DNA of 64,000 nucleotides. It comes from a virus. Its lineage: Duplodnaviria > Caudoviricetes. The stretch covers positions 4,819-68,818 of the IMG/VR virus record IMGVR_UViG_3300003320_000367; one strand, written 5' to 3'. Below the pieces are notes generated by a model. It was not told the DNA's origin, searched no databases, and saw only the letters and a program-made list of their open reading frames with translations. The position numbers and the translations under genes are program-made. Positions 50,544 through 62,282 of the stretch are shown piece after piece. The stretch's first letter is position 1. Each line of letters begins with the position of its first letter.

Positions 50544-50600
50544 AGGACTCGTCAGCACCGGCACCTTACCGGCGGACCTCCTTCTCGGAGGTTTCGTCCT
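50544..50600 (-). ncRNA. type II hammerhead ribozyme HH-H
   Basis: AGGAC GAAA CCUCC gagaa GGAGG UC| CGCCGG uaaggug CCGGUG CUGACGA GUCCU; predicted cut after 50575. Confidence 0.9.
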
Positions 50601-50614
50601 AGGCTGAGGATGGA

Positions 50615-50764
50615 TCAGAAGAAGATGGCCCAGATGGCCAGCCCGGCGATGGTCATGCCGCCAAGGAACGCCAGGGCCAGGATGCCAGTCATGATCAGGC
50701 AGCACCCCTTGCCGTCGCGGTCCATGTCGTGCTTGTCCCACCAGTTCTTCATGAAGCTGGCCAT
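50615..50764 (-). CDS. small membrane protein
   Basis: Single TM segment; coupled start. Confidence 0.55.
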   Translation of the reverse strand: MASFMKNWWDKHDMDRDGKGCCLIMTGILALAFLGGMTIAGLAIWAIFF

Positions 50765-51081
50765 CAGGGGCGGAACTCCTCGTCGATCTCGTCGAGCTTG
50801 TGCTCCAGCTCGTCGAGGCGCTCGGGGCGCAGAGCCCTCACGTCCTCTTCGAGAGCGTCGGCCTCTCGCTCGGGTAGCTTGGGGTCCGACATGAGCATGG
50901 TCAGGATCTTGCGGATGCAGCCCCAGCACGAGAGCAGCCCCATGGGGTACCACTCGCCAGCTTCCGGGGTGATCTCCGGATCGTCCAGATCACGAGGGAT
51001 GCAGCAGACAGCCGCCTTCTCGTGGCACAGATAGCAATTGGACCCGCGTTGCGCCGGGCTGACGCACACCTCTGGCTTCAC
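50764..51081 (-). CDS. Cys-rich hypothetical protein
   Basis: CYLC...CCIP...CWGC. Confidence 0.6.
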   Translation of the reverse strand: MKPEVCVSPAQRGSNCYLCHEKAAVCCIPRDLDDPEITPEAGEWYPMGLLSCWGCIRKILTMLMSDPKLPEREADALEEDVRALRPERLDELEHKLDEIDEEFRP

Positions 51082-51362
51082 CGGATCGCCTCCCACAGCG
51101 GCTTGGGGGCGTACGGGTTGTAGTCCGACCACGAGCTGACCTGGTCGGTGGCGACCCAGACTGCCTTGCGCTCGGGCTCTCTGAGCTCGCCCTCGACGTG
51201 GTCGCTCAGCTCCTCGCCGGAGATGACGCCGACGACCGCGCCAGTGAGCGGGTAGGTCGGCTGGATGCAGGCAAGTACCTCCACCTCGCTCGTGTCGACG
51301 TCGGACGCCTTGAGGTCCTCCTGGATCTCCAGGAGCTTCTCGATGAGTTCGTCCAGCTTCAT
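51078..51362 (-). CDS. hypothetical protein
   Basis: GGAGG SD adjoining hammerhead HH-G; MKLDELIEKL. Confidence 0.75.
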   Translation of the reverse strand: MKLDELIEKLLEIQEDLKASDVDTSEVEVLACIQPTYPLTGAVVGVISGEELSDHVEGELREPERKAVWVATDQVSSWSDYNPYAPKPLWEAIR

Positions 51363-51378
51363 ATGCAAGATCCTCCAC

Positions 51379-51453
51379 GATCTCGTCAGCAGCCGCACCA
51401 TACGGCCGGACGCCCGTCCCACGGCTGGCAGCCGCGTTCCGAGCGTTTCGATC
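51379..51453 (-). ncRNA. type II hammerhead ribozyme HH-G
   Basis: GAUC GAAA CGCUCG...CGGGCG UC| CGGCCG uauggug CGGCUG CUGACGA GAUC; predicted cut after 51409. Confidence 0.9.
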
Positions 51454-51562
51454 TGGGGTGGAGGTCACCCTCTCTGCGACCTTGCGTAGGCCACAGCGAG
51501 GGCGATGGTTAATAACCAGAACCACAGCCCCGAGAGGTCTGGTCTGGGCCTGTGATTCACGT

Positions 51563-52045
51563 TCAGTCCTTCGTCTCGACGAACCCGGCCTCGTCCGTTC
51601 CGAAGTCGCTCGGAGCGTTCTCATCCCGGATACCGTACTCGCGCCGACGCTTGACCTCCTCGGCTGACACGAGCGTCATCTGGCGACCCTTGAAGTCGAT
51701 GCCGATGTCGTACCGCGCCTTGAGCTCGTGTACCAGCCACGCCGGGTTGATCCACAGCGGCACGTACATCTTTCCGTCGTTGCAGAGCTCGATGTACGCG
51801 GCCTTGAGCAGGTCGTCGCATCCCATCTCGCGGAGCGTCTTGGGCAGCTCCATCATGTCCGGGGTCGGGTCGGTGTTGCACCAGCGCAGGTTCCAGTCGA
51901 CCTCGTCGTTGTCTGCATCGCGCAGCCGCAGCCGGTTGATCGCGTCGTTGGCCTTGTCCTGGTCGGTGAACACTGCGAAGTGCTCCTCGCGGTCCTCCTC
52001 GACCAGGACCTTGTAGATGTTCCAGACCGTCGACTCGGTTTCCAT
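51563..52045 (-). CDS. hypothetical protein
   Basis: GAGGAGG SD adjoining HH-F; METESTVWNIY. Confidence 0.75.
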   Translation of the reverse strand: METESTVWNIYKVLVEEDREEHFAVFTDQDKANDAINRLRLRDADNDEVDWNLRWCNTDPTPDMMELPKTLREMGCDDLLKAAYIELCNDGKMYVPLWINPAWLVHELKARYDIGIDFKGRQMTLVSAEEVKRRREYGIRDENAPSDFGTDEAGFVETKD

Positions 52046-52058
52046 GCATCCTCCTCGG

Positions 52059-52120
52059 GGACTCCTCAGCAGCGCCATCCAGCGCCGGACCATCGGGGCC
52101 GGAGCCCCTAGGTTTCGTCC
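52059..52120 (-). ncRNA. type II hammerhead ribozyme HH-F
   Basis: GGAC GAAA CC..GGGGC uccg GCCCC..GG UC| CGGCGC uggaug GCGCUG CUGAGGA GUCC; predicted cut after 52088. Confidence 0.87.
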
Positions 52121-52180
52121 TTGCCCCAGCACCCCGGCCGGAGGACTCGAAGTCTCTCCGACCGGGGGCGTCATGGGGTG

Positions 52181-52645
52181 TTACTTCTTGGTGGCCGCCG
52201 TCCGCCGGGTGCGCCGGGCGGTGGTCGCCTTCTTGGGCTCAGGAGCGGCCTCCGTGGCCGCCTCCGCGCCGTTCTCGCCGTCGCCCTCAGCGGTGGGCTC
52301 GGCGTCCGCCTTCGGGGCCTCAGCGGGCTCCTCGGGCTTCGCCTCGTCCTTCTGCTCGCCGCCCTTGAGCTTGGCGAGCTCCGCCTCCAGCTTGGCCAGC
52401 TTCCGAGCCTTGGCCTCCTCCGCCTTCTTGGCGGCCTCAGCCTTGCGCTCGGCGAGAGCCTTCTGGTTCTCCTCGCTGGACTGGAAGTCCATCCGCATGG
52501 TGACGGCGAGCTGGACCGTCTTCAGGTCCGGGGTGTAGCCCGTCTTCTCCTCGATCCACTTGGCGAACGCCTTGTGGAGCTCGGTGGGCTCAGCGGCCGC
52601 ACGCTCAGCGAAGGTCTTCTTGCTGGGGGTGGTGTTCTCGGCCAT
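52181..52645 (-). CDS. hypothetical protein, paralogue 2 of a 3-member family
   Basis: PTELHKAFAKWIEEKTGY...KTVQLAVTMRMDFQSSEENQ plus K/A/E tail. Confidence 0.8.
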   Translation of the reverse strand: MAENTTPSKKTFAERAAAEPTELHKAFAKWIEEKTGYTPDLKTVQLAVTMRMDFQSSEENQKALAERKAEAAKKAEEAKARKLAKLEAELAKLKGGEQKDEAKPEEPAEAPKADAEPTAEGDGENGAEAATEAAPEPKKATTARRTRRTAATKK

Positions 52646-52661
52646 GGTGTTTCCTCCTTGG

Positions 52662-52725
52662 GGACTCATCGGCACCGGCATCCACCGGCGGACGAGCAGC
52701 GCTTCCCAGCGGGCTCGTTTCGTCC
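52662..52725 (-). ncRNA. type II hammerhead ribozyme HH-E (variant core CCGAUGA)
   Basis: GGAC GAAA CGAGC...GCUCG UC| CGCCGG uggaug CCGGUG CCGAUGA GUCC; predicted cut after 52691. Confidence 0.78.
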
Positions 52726-53148
52726 TTGTTGTTGATGAGTGCCGGCATCTCCTCAGCTTGTTGAGGGTTGCGGTTGCCGGCATACCGTCCACCTTTCGAC
52801 TTCCTGGCCAGAGGTGCCCCGAGCGGGGTGTCTCACTTGACCCAGGCTTGAAGAGGTGGAGTTCGTCGCTCGCTAGCAGCTTTCAGTACCGCCCGGATGT
52901 GTGCGCTTCCTCCACCCGCAGTGGGTGGCGGCTGCCCGTCCTCGGGAAGTCCAGTCGCTTCGCTCGCAACTACCGGTTTTGGGGAGTCCGGTTCCTGTCT
53001 AGAGTCAGCGGCCAGGACCAGGGTCCTGTGCGCGATCTCAGCCGTCTCTCTTGGCTGTCCTGCTCGGGTTCGCGGTCTTCGGGCGGAACCTCGACCCTCG
53101 GCCAGACCGGCCATCCGGGGAGTTCGTTCCTTGCCCTCGTCGCTTCCT
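52692..53148 (-). ncRNA. candidate structured non-coding RNA B (promoter to HH-E cut)
   Basis: No SD-led ORF; 5' part homologous to 57582-57675. Confidence 0.55.
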
Positions 53149-53155
53149 GAGTAGA

Positions 53156-53185
53156 ACTATGCGCCATATCCGGGTCCGAGGCAAC
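53156..53185 (-). promoter_or_regulatory. putative early promoter GTTGCC-N18-CATAGT
   Basis: Matches the repeated right-arm promoter family. Confidence 0.65.
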
Positions 53186-53352
53186 TCAGCCCCTACCTGG
53201 TCATTCACCGTGTTTGACCAGGTAGGAGCATGTGCAAACTTCGTGGAACTTTTTTCGACTTTTTCTATTTCCGCAGGCCGGCATGAGTGCGACGCGTCAT
53301 GGGGTGAATCGGGCGAACCATATCGTCAACGGCGATTCACCCGGCCTCCGGC

Positions 53353-53754
53353 CTACCAGCAGCCGGTGTGGATGGGCGTGAACTTGAGGTTCTCGTCCTC
53401 CGCCTTGAACAGCGCCTTGGTGTAGTCGGTCTTCCGCACGGTGTACCAGACGTCGTCGTCCTTGGCGGAGCCATTGACGTTGTCCAGCTCCACGCAGTAC
53501 AGCGCGGGCTTGGCCCTGCGATCGACGACCTTCTTCCAGCTGGTCACAGTCTTGTAAGACTTGCACTTGCCGGCAACCTTGCGCGTGCAGACGCGCTCGG
53601 TCTTCTTCTCCCTGTGGCTCTTCTCCTTGACGGCGGCCACGTGCCTGACATCGTCGCGGTCGCCAGACACCGGCTTCTGCGCGGGTGCACTGGCGTCGCA
53701 CGCCACGGCCGCAACCATCACAGCGCCAACCAGCACTGCGTTCCTGATCCTCAT
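53353..53754 (-). CDS. putative lipoprotein
   Basis: MRIRNAVLVGAVMVAAVAC lipobox-like signal. Confidence 0.7.
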   Translation of the reverse strand: MRIRNAVLVGAVMVAAVACDASAPAQKPVSGDRDDVRHVAAVKEKSHREKKTERVCTRKVAGKCKSYKTVTSWKKVVDRRAKPALYCVELDNVNGSAKDDDVWYTVRKTDYTKALFKAEDENLKFTPIHTGCW

Positions 53755-53770
53755 GCTGTTCCTTCGCTCG

Positions 53771-53959
53771 TTACTTCACGATGTTGTACGAGACGACGAC
53801 GTGCTTTGCAGCATCTTCGGCGATCATCTCTCGCACCCGCTCGTCGCGGTCCTCTGGGAGGATCGCCTCCCAGAGGTGCTTCGGAATCCTGAGCCAGCCC
53901 TTCATGGTGGTGGCTGCCGGTCCGTAGCCGATCTCAAAGTGGACCTCGATGTCGTCCAC
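53771..53959 (-). CDS. small hypothetical protein
   Basis: AAGGAG SD before GTG. Confidence 0.6.
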   Translation of the reverse strand: MDDIEVHFEIGYGPAATTMKGWLRIPKHLWEAILPEDRDERVREMIAEDAAKHVVVSYNIVK

Positions 53960-54066
53960 ATTCGGCTCCTTCGGCCGTAGGTGGCCCATAGCGGGCTCGG
54001 GAGCGCCCCGGCCTCCCAAGGGGATGACCGGGGCGCGTTCGGCCCTTACGTGGCCGCGTAGGCCCG

Positions 54067-54435
54067 CTAGAGAGCCTTCAGGGCGTACAGCCGGTTCTGC
54101 TCGTCGCGCACGACCAGCGATCCGTCCTGCATCTCGCCGACCTGCTCGAAGAGGCCGAGGGACTTGCCGGCATCCGGGTTGCCCTTCTCTGACACGTCCG
54201 GCTTGGTGTCGGCCTCCAGGCGCCAGCTGTTGCCGGCAGAGATGACCGTGATGTCCATCCGCTCCATCAGCCGTCGCATGACGTTACGCACGGAAGCCTG
54301 GTGAGCCTCCGGCGGAAGCGCGTTCATCAGCTCGTGCACGGTGACGATGCGACCCCGGTTGGCGAGCATGAACTCGACAACGCGGGGCTCGACGACGATG
54401 CGCTTGCGACCCTCTGCGGGCTTGCCACGAACCAT
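54067..54435 (-). CDS. hypothetical protein, possible winged helix
   Basis: CCCCAAGGAGG SD; VTVHELMNAL...SVRNVMRRL. Confidence 0.7.
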   Translation of the reverse strand: MVRGKPAEGRKRIVVEPRVVEFMLANRGRIVTVHELMNALPPEAHQASVRNVMRRLMERMDITVISAGNSWRLEADTKPDVSEKGNPDAGKSLGLFEQVGEMQDGSLVVRDEQNRLYALKAL

Positions 54436-54455
54436 GGTGCAGTCCTCCTTGGGGA

Positions 54456-54848
54456 CTAGTTCTCGTACTTGACGTGCTCGGCCGCGTCGGTGGCCGCGTA
54501 GGTGTTGTTCTTCGGGTTCAGGACGATCCAGCGCTGGCGCTCCAGGCCAGCCCAGACCGCAGCCCGCTCCAGCTCGTTGAGCCTGCCGCCCTTGGTCACC
54601 TCGGCCTCGTGCTCGGCCACGGCGAACAGGAACAGGGCTCGCAGGTCCATCAGCGAGTATCGCGTGGCCAGTGCGTGGCGGACGTGCGGGCGAGTCTCCT
54701 CGCGCTTCGACTTGGAGCCGAGCCGGTACATCGCCAGCTGGTACTCGGTCGCGAAGTCGAGATGGTCCGCGAACGTCTGCGGGTTGAGCGGGACGCCTAC
54801 GGTCTCGGCGTCGAACGCCACTTGGATCCTGTGCTTCCGGTCGTACAC
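54456..54848 (-). CDS. hypothetical protein
   Basis: AAGGAGG SD adjoining HH-D. Confidence 0.75.
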   Translation of the reverse strand: MYDRKHRIQVAFDAETVGVPLNPQTFADHLDFATEYQLAMYRLGSKSKREETRPHVRHALATRYSLMDLRALFLFAVAEHEAEVTKGGRLNELERAAVWAGLERQRWIVLNPKNNTYAATDAAEHVKYEN

Positions 54849-54862
54849 TTGGTCCTCCTTCG

Positions 54863-54915
54863 GGACTCTTCAGGAGCGTCATCCAACGCCCGACCTCCTT
54901 TCGGAGGTTTCGTCC
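54863..54915 (-). ncRNA. type II hammerhead ribozyme HH-D
   Basis: GGAC GAAA CCUCC gaaa GGAGG UC| GGGCGU uggaug ACGCUC CUGAAGA GUCC; predicted cut after 54892. Confidence 0.9.
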
Positions 54916-54919
54916 TTGT

Positions 54920-55105
54920 CTACAGTTCGGACATGACCAGCAGAATGCACTCGTCGCTCATGAACGGAAACTCCCGCTTGATGGCGTCGAACACGAGCTG
55001 CTGGTCCTGGGTCAGCGCCTGCGCCTCCTGCGTCGGCTCGGGATCAGCGCGGCGATCAGCTCGCCCAGAAGGTCTGCGAGCAAGTCGATGAAGAACACCG
55101 CGCAT
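54920..55105 (-). CDS. small hypothetical protein
   Basis: ATG coupled to the upstream TGA. Confidence 0.5.
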   Translation of the reverse strand: MRGVLHRLARRPSGRADRRADPEPTQEAQALTQDQQLVFDAIKREFPFMSDECILLVMSEL

Positions 55106-55266
55106 CACTGCCCCGCCGGAGGACCGTACAGGTCCATCGCGTCGGCGTCCGGCGGCTGGACCTGCTGCTCGGGCGTGTGCCCTCGGACCTCCTGCTGGAT
55201 GACCGGGTCGGCCTCCGGCGGAGGAGCCGCCTCGTGCCCGCCGTGGGACTTGGGGATGCCGCTCAC
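55105..55266 (-). CDS. small disordered P/Q/E-rich peptide (below ORF-track cutoff)
   Basis: AAGGAG SD, GTG start; MSGIPKSHGGHEAAPPPEAD... Confidence 0.45.
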   Translation of the reverse strand: MSGIPKSHGGHEAAPPPEADPVIQQEVRGHTPEQQVQPPDADAMDLYGPPAGQ

Positions 55267-55493
55267 TTGTCACTCTCCTTCTTGGCCTTGGCCAGCGGGA
55301 TGAGGAGCCCCTGCTCGCTCATCGACACCATCTTGCAGAAGCTGACGATCTCCTTGATGACGCGCGGAGGCGCGCTGTGGATGACGACGTAGTCCTTGTT
55401 GACCACTCCGTCGAAGATCGCGAACGTCGACATCTTGATCAGTCCGTCGGCGTTCATGATGTAGTCGTACACAGCCTTGCGGTCGTTGTCCAT
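55263..55493 (-). CDS. hypothetical protein
   Basis: CCCCAAGGAGG SD; MDNDRKAVYDY. Confidence 0.7.
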   Translation of the reverse strand: MDNDRKAVYDYIMNADGLIKMSTFAIFDGVVNKDYVVIHSAPPRVIKEIVSFCKMVSMSEQGLLIPLAKAKKESDK

Positions 55494-55513
55494 GGGGTGT
55501 CCTCCTTGGGGAC

Positions 55514-55828
55514 TCAGTTGACCGGGTCGACCCGGTCGAGGTAGCGACGGAGCGCGGCGCGCACCGACTGAGGCTTGACGCCGTAGGAGCGCGCTAGGCG
55601 ACCGACGGAGTGGCAGTCGCCGCCCTCCTTGAGGAACGCGCCGTAGAGCTGTGCACCGGCCAGCGGGAGCCTCTTGTAGGGCCGAGGCTTGTGGCCTTTG
55701 CGGAGCAGCACCTTCCGGATGGTGCTCTCGTTGACGCCGAAGTGCCTCGCCGTCCGCGAGTTGTTCTGGCCGTGTTCGCGCCACGCCTTGACGACCTCGT
55801 CGTCGCTCGGCAGCGGGATCAGACCCAT
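55514..55828 (-). CDS. tandem helix-turn-helix DNA-binding protein
   Basis: NNSRTARHFGVNESTIRKVL and SVGRLARSYGVKPQSVRAAL. Confidence 0.72.
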   Translation of the reverse strand: MGLIPLPSDDEVVKAWREHGQNNSRTARHFGVNESTIRKVLLRKGHKPRPYKRLPLAGAQLYGAFLKEGGDCHSVGRLARSYGVKPQSVRAALRRYLDRVDPVN

Positions 55829-55842
55829 GGAATCCTCCTTGG

Positions 55843-55895
55843 GGACTCATCAGGAGTGCCATCCAGCACCCGACCGGTCGAAGCCGGTTTCGTCC
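55843..55895 (-). ncRNA. type II hammerhead ribozyme HH-C
   Basis: GGAC GAAA CCGG cuucga CCGG UC| GGGUGC uggaug GCACUC CUGAUGA GUCC (canonical core); predicted cut after 55872. Confidence 0.93.
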
Positions 55896-55914
55896 TTGTG
55901 TGCAAGCCGGCATG

Positions 55915-56220
55915 TCATCGGCCGATGGTGCCGCGCTCCATCTCGCGCTTGCGATAGTCGGCTGCGGCGTCCAGGCACGGCGTGCGGTTCTTCTTGAGGT
56001 CCTGCACAGCCTGCCAGATTGCGCCGGAGTAGTTCCAGCCCGCGCTCAGGTTCATCCGGGTGTGCGCCTCGGCGACAGCCACCGTGCGCTGCCCCGGCGT
56101 GAGCTCGCGCAGGATGGGCGCAGCCGCCCGGTTGCCACGGTGCGTCGTCTGGTTCTCCCACTCGTCGAGCTGCTCATCGGTGATGACGCGCTCGCCAACC
56201 TGAGGCTTGTTCGTGGTCAT
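55915..56220 (-). CDS. hypothetical protein
   Basis: GAGGAGG SD adjoining HH-B. Confidence 0.75.
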   Translation of the reverse strand: MTTNKPQVGERVITDEQLDEWENQTTHRGNRAAAPILRELTPGQRTVAVAEAHTRMNLSAGWNYSGAIWQAVQDLKKNRTPCLDAAADYRKREMERGTIGR

Positions 56221-56234
56221 GTGGTCCTCCTCGG

Positions 56235-56306
56235 GGACTCGTCAGTACGGCGATCAGCCGCAGACGGCCCGCCCTCCCCTGGCTGGGGAGTCGGGCCGTT
56301 TCGTCC
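56235..56306 (-). ncRNA. type II hammerhead ribozyme HH-B
   Basis: GGAC GAAA CGGCCCG...CGGGCCG UC| UGCGGC ugauc GCCGUA CUGACGA GUCC; predicted cut after 56263. Confidence 0.9.
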
Positions 56307-56317
56307 TTCGAGGTTGC

Positions 56318-56920
56318 TTAGTCGTCCAGCGCGGGGCAGCAGGGCTTGGCGTTGTAGGCCATGTAGTTGTCCTTCAGGCTGCTCTCGCCCGAGTCGATCA
56401 TGTCCGAGTAGATCAGGTGGGTCAGCTCGGTGTGGCTGCTGACCTGCGCGGTCTCCTTGGAGAAGCCCTTGGCCTTGGTCATCTTCTTCAGGTCGGCGCA
56501 GCCGAACTTGTGCACCTCGGGCTCGCCGTTGCCGTAGACCACGGTCAGCTTCTGGACCGGACCCGGCTCCTCGGTCTTGGCCTCCTCGGCGACCGGCTCG
56601 ACCTCCTTGGGCTCCTCGACCGCCTCGGCCTGCTCGCCACGGAGCTTCGCCAGCTCGGCCTCCAGCTTGGCCTTCTTGCGCTCGGCCGAAGCCTTCTTGC
56701 GGGCCGCAGCCGCCGCCTTGCGCTCAGCCAGCGCCTTCTGGTTCTCGGGGGAGGCCTGGAAGTCCATCCGGAGGACGGTCACCAGCTGGACCGTCTTCAG
56801 GTCGACCCGGACGCCGGTCTGAACGAACAGCCACTCAGCGAAGTCCTCGTGCAGCTGGGTCGGAGCCTTGGCCGCGATGGCCTCGTAGTTCTTCGGGGTC
56901 TTGTTGGTGTTGGCAGCCAT
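56318..56920 (-). CDS. hypothetical protein, paralogue 3 of a 3-member family (extra C-terminal Cys/His domain)
   Basis: PTQLHEDFAEWLFVQTG...KTVQLVTVLRMDFQASPENQ; VHKFGCAD...PCC. Confidence 0.8.
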   Translation of the reverse strand: MAANTNKTPKNYEAIAAKAPTQLHEDFAEWLFVQTGVRVDLKTVQLVTVLRMDFQASPENQKALAERKAAAAARKKASAERKKAKLEAELAKLRGEQAEAVEEPKEVEPVAEEAKTEEPGPVQKLTVVYGNGEPEVHKFGCADLKKMTKAKGFSKETAQVSSHTELTHLIYSDMIDSGESSLKDNYMAYNAKPCCPALDD

Positions 56921-56963
56921 GGGGTCCTCCTTGGGGACTTCGTCGGTTGGCCTTACAGTAAGA

Positions 56964-56993
56964 ACTATACTCCATTGCAGCCGGCATGGCTAC
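56964..56993 (-). promoter_or_regulatory. putative early promoter GTAGCC-N18-TATAGT
   Basis: Repeated promoter family. Confidence 0.75.
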
Positions 56994-57064
56994 TCTGGAG
57001 TGGAACTTTCTTGCCGGCACAGCCGGGGAGCTGGGGGCTCCCCGGCTGGCCGTCGCGCCTTGCC

Positions 57065-57268
57065 TCAGCGCTGGATCTCGTCCGGACCCGGCGTGCCGAG
57101 CGGGTTCTCGACCTGGATCAGGTCGGTGCCCTCGGCCCCGGTGGGCTGCGGCCGGTCGGTGATGCGGCTGTTGTCCGCGTGGTTCCCCGACTGGCCACCC
57201 TGGCCCTCGTGCTGCGTCCCGTTCGGCGGGTTGCTCGCCTGCGGTACGCGCTTCGGCAGGATGCCCAT
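57065..57268 (-). CDS. small disordered hypothetical protein
   Basis: AAGGAGG SD adjoining HH-A. Confidence 0.65.
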   Translation of the reverse strand: MGILPKRVPQASNPPNGTQHEGQGGQSGNHADNSRITDRPQPTGAEGTDLIQVENPLGTPGPDEIQR

Positions 57269-57282
57269 CGTGTTCCTCCTTG

Positions 57283-57346
57283 AGACTCCTCAGGACCGCC
57301 GTTCAGCGGCCGACAGCCAGCGTCTCCCGACGGGGCTGTTTCGTCT
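57283..57346 (-). ncRNA. type II hammerhead ribozyme HH-A
   Basis: AGAC GAAA CAGCC...GGCUG UC| GGCCGC ugaacg GCGGUC CUGAGGA GUCU; predicted cut after 57312. Confidence 0.9.
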
Positions 57347-58201: not shown

Positions 58202-58309
58202 CTCGCCCTCCTTGGGGACTCGTGCGTTGACCAGATCATCTTACCGTGCGTCTGGAGAAATGGAAACCCCCGACCCTCCGAAGGGAGAGCCGGGGGTCGC
58301 CGGGGTTGG

Positions 58310-58669: not shown

Positions 58670-58723
58670 GGCGGCCTCCTTGGGGCCTCGGAGGAGAGCC
58701 TTGCGCTCTCCCTTACAGTAAGA

Positions 58724-58753
58724 ACTATACTCCAGTCTGGAGGTTCGCGCTAC
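58724..58753 (-). promoter_or_regulatory. putative early promoter GTAGCG-N18-TATAGT
   Basis: Repeated promoter family. Confidence 0.75.
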
Positions 58754-59488: not shown

Positions 59489-59520
59489 TGCGTCCTCCTC
59501 GGGGACTTGCTGTTGATAGA

Positions 59521-59551
59521 ACTATACCCCATGTGCACATCTACGCGCTAC
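59521..59551 (-). promoter_or_regulatory. putative early promoter GTAGCG-N19-TATAGT
   Basis: Repeated promoter family. Confidence 0.7.
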
Positions 59552-59932: not shown

Positions 59933-59986
59933 CGGGGCCTCCTTGGGGCCTCGGGGCCGACCCTCGCGGTCGGCCTTACACTAAGA

Positions 59987-60016
59987 ACTATACCCCATGT
60001 GCAGATGGATGGAAAC
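59987..60016 (-). promoter_or_regulatory. putative early promoter GTTTCC-N18-TATAGT
   Basis: Variant of the promoter family. Confidence 0.62.
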
Positions 60017-61714: not shown

Positions 61715-61753
61715 CTGGTGCCTCCTTGGGGCGTTCTCTCGCTTACAGTAAGA

Positions 61754-61783
61754 ACTATACTCCAGACTGCAGTCTTCCGCTAC
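61754..61783 (-). promoter_or_regulatory. putative early promoter GTAGCG-N18-TATAGT
   Basis: Repeated promoter family. Confidence 0.75.
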
Positions 61784-62236: not shown

Positions 62237-62282
62237 TGGTGTTGTGGGCGGGTGGTCCGCCCCGGTCCCCAAGGAGGGCGAG

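Follow-up and report, generated by a model that had tools for sequence, protein, structure and literature searches.

In 2011 Perreault et al. reported that hammerhead ribozymes often flank single genes or short gene blocks in prophages, and proposed that they process transcripts into messenger RNAs (mRNAs) of operon or gene length; circular products were a matter of speculation (PLoS Comput Biol, PMC3088659). Clustered hammerheads from bacteria and prophages were shown to cleave in vitro and in E. coli (Perreault et al., 2011; PMC3088659). Cleavage by type II hammerheads that lie near phage-like genes of Desulfovibrio was detected by cyPhyRNA-seq (PMC8782182). According to a review of 2019, such ribozymes may process polycistronic transcripts into RNAs that differ in stability or translation efficiency, which was still to be shown, and the biological role of bacterial and phage hammerheads is formally unsettled (PMC6765202). 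Here we describe an array of eight predicted type II hammerheads in a 64 kilobase (kb) stretch of viral DNA, referred to as the window, which comprises bases 4819-68818 of the complete 68,818-base-pair (bp) virus record IMGVR_UViG_3300003320_000367. Its source is a lytic Streptomyces phage of 68.8 kb. As in the clusters of 2011, several hammerheads are found within a few kb on one strand and flank genes of mostly unknown function.

The array was delimited with a loose type II motif consisting of four pairable bases, which form a 4-bp stem II, GAAA, up to 110 nucleotides (nt), CYGANGA, and the four partner bases. This motif matches exactly eight sites in the 64 kb, all on the minus strand, which is the gene strand, between 50545 and 57346 (about 6.8 kb). 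With a covariance model built from an alignment of 50 copies, the eight sites score 58-89 bits, and the highest score elsewhere in the window is 12.8 bits. The 50 aligned copies all share the catalytic bases C-GAAA-C, GU before the cut, and C.GA.GAG. The core of the Rfam family Hammerhead_II (RF02276), that is C3-U4-G5-A6-N7-G8-A9, G12-A13-A14, the A15.1-U16.1 pair and H17, is present, and seven of the eight window copies are fully canonical.

Pairing and covariation were computed over 45 distinct copies from seven phages. Stems I and II are paired in 100% and stem III in 91.8%, and 12 of the 16 stem pairs have changes on both sides. Stem II occurs in four versions, GGAC/GUCC, AGAC/GUCU, GAUC/GAUC and GAGC/GCUC. 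The covariation score of 0.539 compares with 0.159 for shuffled partners, none of 500 shuffles reaching it, and with about 0.1 when the partners are slid by 1-3 columns. Both minimum-energy and centroid folds give three-way junctions for all eight copies, with stems I and III closed, stem II open, and the GAAA and CUGANGA segments unpaired. Each of six related phages has 6-8 matches to the loose motif, again on the gene strand, and the gene junctions that they occupy are the same. Covariance-model searches of the whole genomes of the window phage, Lizz, Gibson, Dryad and Yara place all strong matches in one region. The eight ribozymes are thus established at the level of sequence, and their catalysis is a prediction.

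In a type II hammerhead the RNA runs from one strand of stem II through GAAA, the stem III hairpin, the GUC with its cut, the stem I hairpin and CUGANGA to the second strand of stem II. The predicted cuts (Table 1) define intervals of 1049 (a-b), 391 (b-c), 980 (c-d), 2201 (d-e), 603 (e-f), 679 (f-g) and 834 nt (g-h). They contain one to four genes: the 391, 603 and 679 nt units hold the genes at 55915-56220, 52181-52645 and 51563-52045, and the 980 and 834 nt units hold four and three, a count with which the independent annotation of phage Lizz agrees. The original prediction, made from the sequence of the window alone, had proposed that adjacent cuts bracket whole genes in units of 391, 980, 603, 679 and 834 nt; these genes and counts are as it described, and its five sizes and its outer coordinates, 50575 and 57312, match the H17 positions exactly. 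The 603 nt unit relies on hammerhead e, which has a variant core.

Table 1. Positions of the ribozymes and of other features in the window (position 1 is its first base; SD, Shine-Dalgarno sequence)
Feature	Position	Strand	Details
Hammerhead a	57283..57346	-	Stem II AGAC/GUCU, core CUGAGGA; predicted cut after C57312; then SD and ATG 57268; 79.3 bits
Hammerhead b	56235..56306	-	Stem II GGAC/GUCC, long stem III; predicted cut after C56263; then SD and ATG 56220; 70.8 bits
Hammerhead c	55843..55895	-	Predicted cut after C55872; then SD and ATG 55828; 71.8 bits
Hammerhead d	54863..54915	-	Predicted cut after C54892; then SD and GTG 54848; 75.9 bits
Hammerhead e	52662..52725	-	Variant core CCGAUGA (U4C); predicted cut after C52691; then SD and ATG 52645; 88.9 bits
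Hammerhead f	52059..52120	-	Predicted cut after C52088; then SD and ATG 52045; 72.5 bits
Hammerhead g	51379..51453	-	Differing stem II GAUC/GAUC; predicted cut after C51409; then SD and ATG 51362; 58.4 bits
Hammerhead h	50545..50599	-	Predicted cut after C50575; then SD and GTG 50527; 70 bits
Extra GC-rich hairpin	51465..51505 (about)	-	Between stop codon of gene 52045-51563 and hammerhead g; -29.9 kcal/mol, z -5.8
Extra GC-rich hairpin	52124..52178 (about)	-	Between stop codon of gene 52645-52181 and hammerhead f; -42 kcal/mol, z -6.1
GTCCNNNAGGAGG without hammerhead	54444-54456, 55501-55513, 56926-56938, 58207-58219, 59494-59506	-	
GTCCNNNAGGAGG without hammerhead	62265-62277	+	
ATAGTTCT copies	53153-53160, 56961-56968, 58721-58728, 59518-59525, 59984-59991, 61751-61758	-	
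Putative internal promoter	56961..56992	-	TAGCCA, 17 nt spacer, TATAGT, then TCT; in 1049 nt interval, just after hairpin 57013-57056
Terminator-like hairpin	57013..57056	-	In 1049 nt interval; -37.1 kcal/mol, z -5.3
Strong, terminator-like hairpin	54003..54036	-	After gene 54435-54067, in 2201 nt interval; 71-nt stretch -44.1 kcal/mol, z -3.6
Putative internal promoter CATAGTTCT	53160-53153	-	In 2201 nt interval, downstream of hairpin 54003-54036 with two small genes between
Conserved leader without open reading frame, about 430 nt	52726-53147	-	From internal promoter into hammerhead e

All eight ribozymes are placed directly before a ribosome-binding site. Stem II is separated from the GGAGG of the Shine-Dalgarno (SD) sequence by 2-4 nt in each copy, and from the start codon by 14-19 nt. 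An exact-pattern scan of IMG/VR for this hammerhead type gave at least 120 stretches. The matches listed comprise 157 hammerheads in 120 viral contigs. For 76% of these hammerheads an SD-like motif and the beginning of an open reading frame of at least 30 codons lie no more than 45 nt downstream, compared to 13% for random positions on the same strands; the position before the ribosome-binding site is therefore a property of the hammerhead class and not of one phage. Start codons in these listed matches lie a median of 23 nt beyond the end of the ribozyme, and the copies on one strand of a contig number up to six by the exact pattern and up to seven by the covariance model. A search of 185,579 species genomes for the hammerhead-plus-SD pattern returned one 1.5 kb contig of a metagenome-assembled genome, and none of the Streptomyces genomes. 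This sole match (DATIPO010000416.1, 444-514) is assigned to Acidobacteriota and is probably a phage fragment that was binned into the assembly.

The GUCC strand of stem II can pair with a GGAC that overlaps the SD, and the 3' strand of stem II therefore doubles as part of a hairpin at the ribosome-binding site. After cleavage this strand may refold onto the SD region. Masking of the SD by the CCUCC strand of stem III in copies d and h, through pairing with the downstream GGAGG, was also considered and was rejected, as stem III differs in the relatives and the pairing is not conserved.

If the ribozymes cleave, it follows from the hammerhead mechanism that internal fragments carry a 5'-hydroxyl (5'-OH) and a 2',3'-cyclic phosphate, and this end chemistry, assumed in the original prediction, needs no revision. 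Its statement that each unit ends in the stem III hairpin likewise holds for every 5' product: the upstream product consists, at its end, of the stem III hairpin followed by one or two bases. When the trailers are folded alone stem III stays at the 3' end. Leaders folded alone retain the GC-rich stem I, of 6-7 bp, at their very 5' terminus, with the first base paired in all but one of the eight. The stem I hairpin is followed by about 11 single-stranded bases and then the SD. The topology suggests that a closed hairpin at each of the two new ends is peculiar to the type II permutation. Stem III is far longer than catalysis requires in five copies, with about 13-14 bp in b and g and an extension in a, e and f. 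The two extra hairpins that had been noticed just before stem III, at about 51458-51505 and 52122-52170, are real and strong both by folding energy and by z score.

From the sequence evidence for the ribozymes and their covariation, from where they lie and from the end structures predicted, we infer that the hammerheads cut early transcripts in vivo into discrete linear mRNAs with hairpin-capped ends. This is the reading we favour, and we consider it rather likely to be correct. The eight ribozymes lie within the leaders of leftward, promoter-proximal and probably early genes. Each would fold as RNA polymerase passes and cut after its GUC, so that multi-gene transcripts would become linear mRNAs of one to four genes. 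The downstream piece would carry a 5'-OH with its first base already paired in stem I, and the upstream piece would end in stem III and a 2',3'-cyclic phosphate. Each gene block would thus receive a standard translation start, independent of the RNA upstream, and with its ends capped by hairpins its level would be uncoupled from that of its neighbours. An effect on stability or translation would be expected on these grounds.

Several observations weigh against this reading. At the gathering thresholds of Rfam there is no match in the window. In a relaxed search RF02276 matches five of the eight copies, on the minus strand, at 21.9-28.8 bits compared to a cut-off of 37, and the other three are unlisted even at E up to 10. 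A pseudoknot between loop I and the tail, or between loop I and the 5' flank, was not detectable: a UGG/CCA candidate is paired in 66%, and the best helices, of 2-4 bp, are no better than those of shuffled loops. The loop I-3' tail pseudoknot speeds many type II hammerheads and is common but not obligatory; as it was not detected, the rates of cleavage in vivo are uncertain. Some junctions in the relatives are without a ribozyme, Gibson for example lacking copy g, and no single copy is therefore essential. Hammerhead e has a C in place of U4, and this C is found in six of six phages (the core being CCGAAGA in Dryad). In phiRKBJ001 a G-C pair in stem III of this copy has become C-G, a compensatory change. 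The retention of C4 together with this change indicates that the fold of hammerhead e is under selection; its sequence suggests that its cleavage rate is possibly low and that it may be a slow or regulated variant. Lastly, because RNase J can be drawn to a 5'-OH (PMC3328962), cleavage could on balance either stabilise or destabilise the message. Other matches in the relaxed Rfam search (mir-4523, PtaRNA1 and IS1222_FSE, E 1.9-6.2) were taken as chance.

Decay by RNase E is stimulated by a 5' monophosphate. The original prediction had reasoned that 5'-OH ends would be stabilising, and with respect to this 5'-monophosphate-stimulated route the argument is a fair one. It does not hold in general. 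RNase J in its exonuclease mode acts on 5'-monophosphate or 5'-hydroxyl ends, and Streptomyces coelicolor has RNase J (PMC4652760). A 5'-OH alone is therefore no protection in the host. The 5'-OH product of the glmS ribozyme is described as destroyed by RNase J1 (Collins et al., 2007, as reviewed in PMC3328962). If the 5' end is protected at all, the stem I hairpin would be responsible; at the 3' end this role would fall to stem III, the extra hairpins and a cyclic phosphate that tailing enzymes could not extend.

These same properties of RNase J raise the converse proposal, that the array is a destabilising switch, in which cleavage exposes a 5'-OH to RNase J, removes the protection given by upstream ribosomes, shortens the life of the mRNA and helps to shut genes off. 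The glmS precedent is in its favor, as is the location of the array genes downstream of a sigma-70-like promoter family near the right end of the genome. In seven of the eight 3' products, however, the first base is paired in a GC-rich hairpin of 6-7 bp, whereas RNase J threads a single-stranded 5' end. The long stem III and the extra hairpins look like 3' protection and not like disposal, and an SD directly after the ribozyme suggests a product that is meant for translation. We regard such a switch as unlikely.

The distribution of the ribozymes among relatives could also reflect mobility. Ribozymes are present or absent at equivalent junctions, and types of stem III are shuffled between positions, as would be expected if a module of hammerhead and ribosome-binding site spread by recombination between the gene cassettes of mosaic phages, was retained chiefly on that account and marked a cassette boundary with little effect on expression. 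The near-identical stem II and core sequences could serve as recombination points. The ribosome-binding-site motif GTCCNNNAGGAGG has 12 copies compared to 0.34 expected, of which five occur with a ribozyme and six at ribosome-binding sites of the early region without one; at the three of these sites that were read (54444, 55501 and 56926) it precedes a start codon. Against this explanation, the compensatory changes and invariant catalytic bases in the 45 distinct copies point to selection on the RNA fold and core and not on DNA identity alone, and all copies are on the transcribed strand in the same register to the SD. A mere cassette boundary seems to us quite improbable.

The motif ATAGTTCT has six minus-strand copies in the window compared to 0.29 expected. 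Its context is shared and promoter-like, with TAGCCA or TTTCCA (also GTAGCG/TAGCCA), about 17 nt, and TATAGT / TATAGTTCTTACTGTAAGG. By these sequence features the copies look like a phage promoter family, probably early, from which the leftward region of small genes would be transcribed. A terminator-like hairpin and a promoter occur in each of the 1049 and 2201 nt intervals (Table 1), sizes not listed in the original prediction, and each interval is therefore probably not a single RNA species. The array seems to span three transcription units.

The promoter in the 2201 nt interval precedes a leader with properties of its own. It is 91% identical over six phages, compared to 82-86% for the 7.1 kb region as a whole, and is thus conserved above the neighbouring coding DNA. 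RNAalifold predicts 132 pairs in it, of which 10 have compensatory changes, and it has no Rfam match at E up to 10. Possibly the leader is a structured phage RNA not described before, which hammerhead e would release.

It had also been suggested that the units could be circular mRNAs. In this proposal the host RtcB, or the reverse reaction of the ribozyme, joins the two ends of a unit into a circle that resists exonucleases and is translated from its internal SD. The predicted ends have the right chemistry for RtcB, and each unit has its own SD. Circles of hammerhead-flanked units are known from eukaryotic retrozymes (PMC7761336, PMC7229834). The original prediction had seen no RtcB gene in the window and had called for a search of the remaining phage sequence and the host. 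Profiles for RtcB, RNA_ligase, 2_5_RNA_ligase2 and AAA_33 gave no match: RtcB is missing from the window and from the full 68.8 kb genome, and the phage likewise lacks an Rnl-type ligase, a 2H phosphoesterase and a PNK-like kinase. RNA-repair enzymes were absent among the Lizz genes inspected (1-93 of 103 annotated features). For the host genus, one copy of an RtcB family gene has been reported across species of Streptomyces (PMC9206652).

A further difficulty lies in the junctions. When the ends were joined in silico, a-b, b-c, c-d, d-e and e-f (with its U4C core) folded a complete hammerhead with a compatible stem II, and circles of these five of the seven intervals should therefore re-cleave. 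In viroid circles a compact rod-like fold keeps the ribozyme inactive. The ends of a translated RNA of 0.4-2.2 kb would here be held by a stem II of only 4 bp. The terminator-like hairpins and promoters inside the 1049 and 2201 nt intervals are also unfavourable, as is the variation of unit size and ribozyme presence among relatives. Nor are the units tandem repeats, since sequence, length and gene content vary from one to the next and the ribozymes differ in stems I and III. No annotated gene spans a junction and there are zero stop-free frames; the junction-spanning reading frames considered are all out of frame with annotated genes, as expected at 65% GC, and were rejected. Circular or spliced products of clustered hammerheads were sought in 2011 and were not detected (Perreault et al., 2011; PMC3088659).

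Exceptions to the rebuilding of the ribozyme are f-g and g-h, in which the halves of stem II mismatch (GAUC vs GUCC); the joined junction folds no hammerhead and could persist. Structurally, a stable circle is conceivable for these two units alone. If host RtcB joined the ends of the 679 nt (52087-51409) and 834 nt (51408-50575) units, these could not re-cleave and might persist as translatable circular mRNAs. We regard this as highly improbable; if true, it would be the first example of circular mRNAs made naturally by ribozymes in a DNA phage. The general proposal of circles we judge very unlikely, and stable circles overall are unlikely. Thus, of the long-lived modules that had been suggested, discrete hairpin-protected mRNAs remain a reasonable expectation, whereas circular mRNAs are unsupported, given the lack of a phage ligase, the rebuilding of the ribozyme at five of seven junctions and the outcome of the 2011 search (PMC3088659).

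The 7.1 kb around the array match nine Streptomyces phages at 82-86% identity: Lizz, ShakeNBake, PHTowN, Gibson, Rooney, phiRKBJ001, Wentworth, Dryad and Yara, the last over a small part only. In the window phage the left part of the genome holds structural genes in rightward orientation; an arm that extends from the right end, with the replication genes and many small ones, is oriented leftward. The array sits in this leftward arm, upstream of the replication genes. Comparison of ten proteins of the units with Pfam and PHROGs identified one helix-turn-helix protein; the rest belong to families of unknown function. Two genes on the minus strand form a paralogous pair in one PHROG of unknown function, phrog_20596: 56321-56920 (E 4e-97), which directly follows an internal promoter, and 52184-52645 (E 1e-49), which follows the long leader and the U4C hammerhead. 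The GenBank records of related phages that were inspected carry no hammerhead annotation.

With respect to the described families, the elements resemble RF02276 in the core CUGANGA, the GAAA, the A15.1-U16.1 pair, the GUH cleavage triplet, and the folding of stems I and III as closed hairpins with stem II open. They differ from it in scoring below the gathering cut-off, in a stem II of 4 bp compared to 2 bp in the consensus, in having no convincing loop I-tail pseudoknot, and in one conserved U4C copy. In insulators of the RiboJ type, a hammerhead between promoter and ribosome-binding site removes the upstream RNA, leaves a 5' hairpin, standardises translation and stabilises the message. The phage elements, in contrast, are natural, of type II and repeated inside operons, and they would also make the 3' end of the preceding message; the array would amount to a natural counterpart of these synthetic insulators. 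With glmS they share the position of a bacterial self-cleaving ribozyme in a 5' leader and a 5'-OH on the coding fragment. Cleavage of glmS depends on a metabolite and destabilises the message, whereas the phage 5' end lies in a hairpin and no ligand-binding domain is evident. Retrozymes and viroid-like RNAs are similar in having hammerhead-bounded units of a few hundred nt with ends that can be joined by tRNA ligase or RtcB (PMC7761336, PMC7229834). Those of retrozymes, however, are non-coding tandem repeats with identical type I or III ribozymes, unlike the differing protein-coding mRNAs of the phage, in which most junctions would rebuild the ribozyme.

A literature search on hammerheads in phages of Streptomyces gave no relevant result. 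Both the arrangement and the idea of end chemistry and circles were already in print in 2011, and the phage array is a further case. To that work can be added three points that are open to test: that a hairpin on both ends is expected only with type II, that most circles would rebuild the ribozyme, and that the class lies about 23 nt before start codons in the listed viral contigs. A cultured phage family with genetically tractable hosts and eight ribozymes in a fixed register to the ribosome-binding site is a convenient system in which to test insulation, stability and circles. Neither Streptomyces nor placement at the SD is mentioned by Perreault et al. (2011; PMC3088659). Compared to the clusters described there, the present array is distinguished by eight copies within about 6.8 kb of a lytic Streptomyces phage family of cultured type, all of them type II and each 2-4 nt before an SD.

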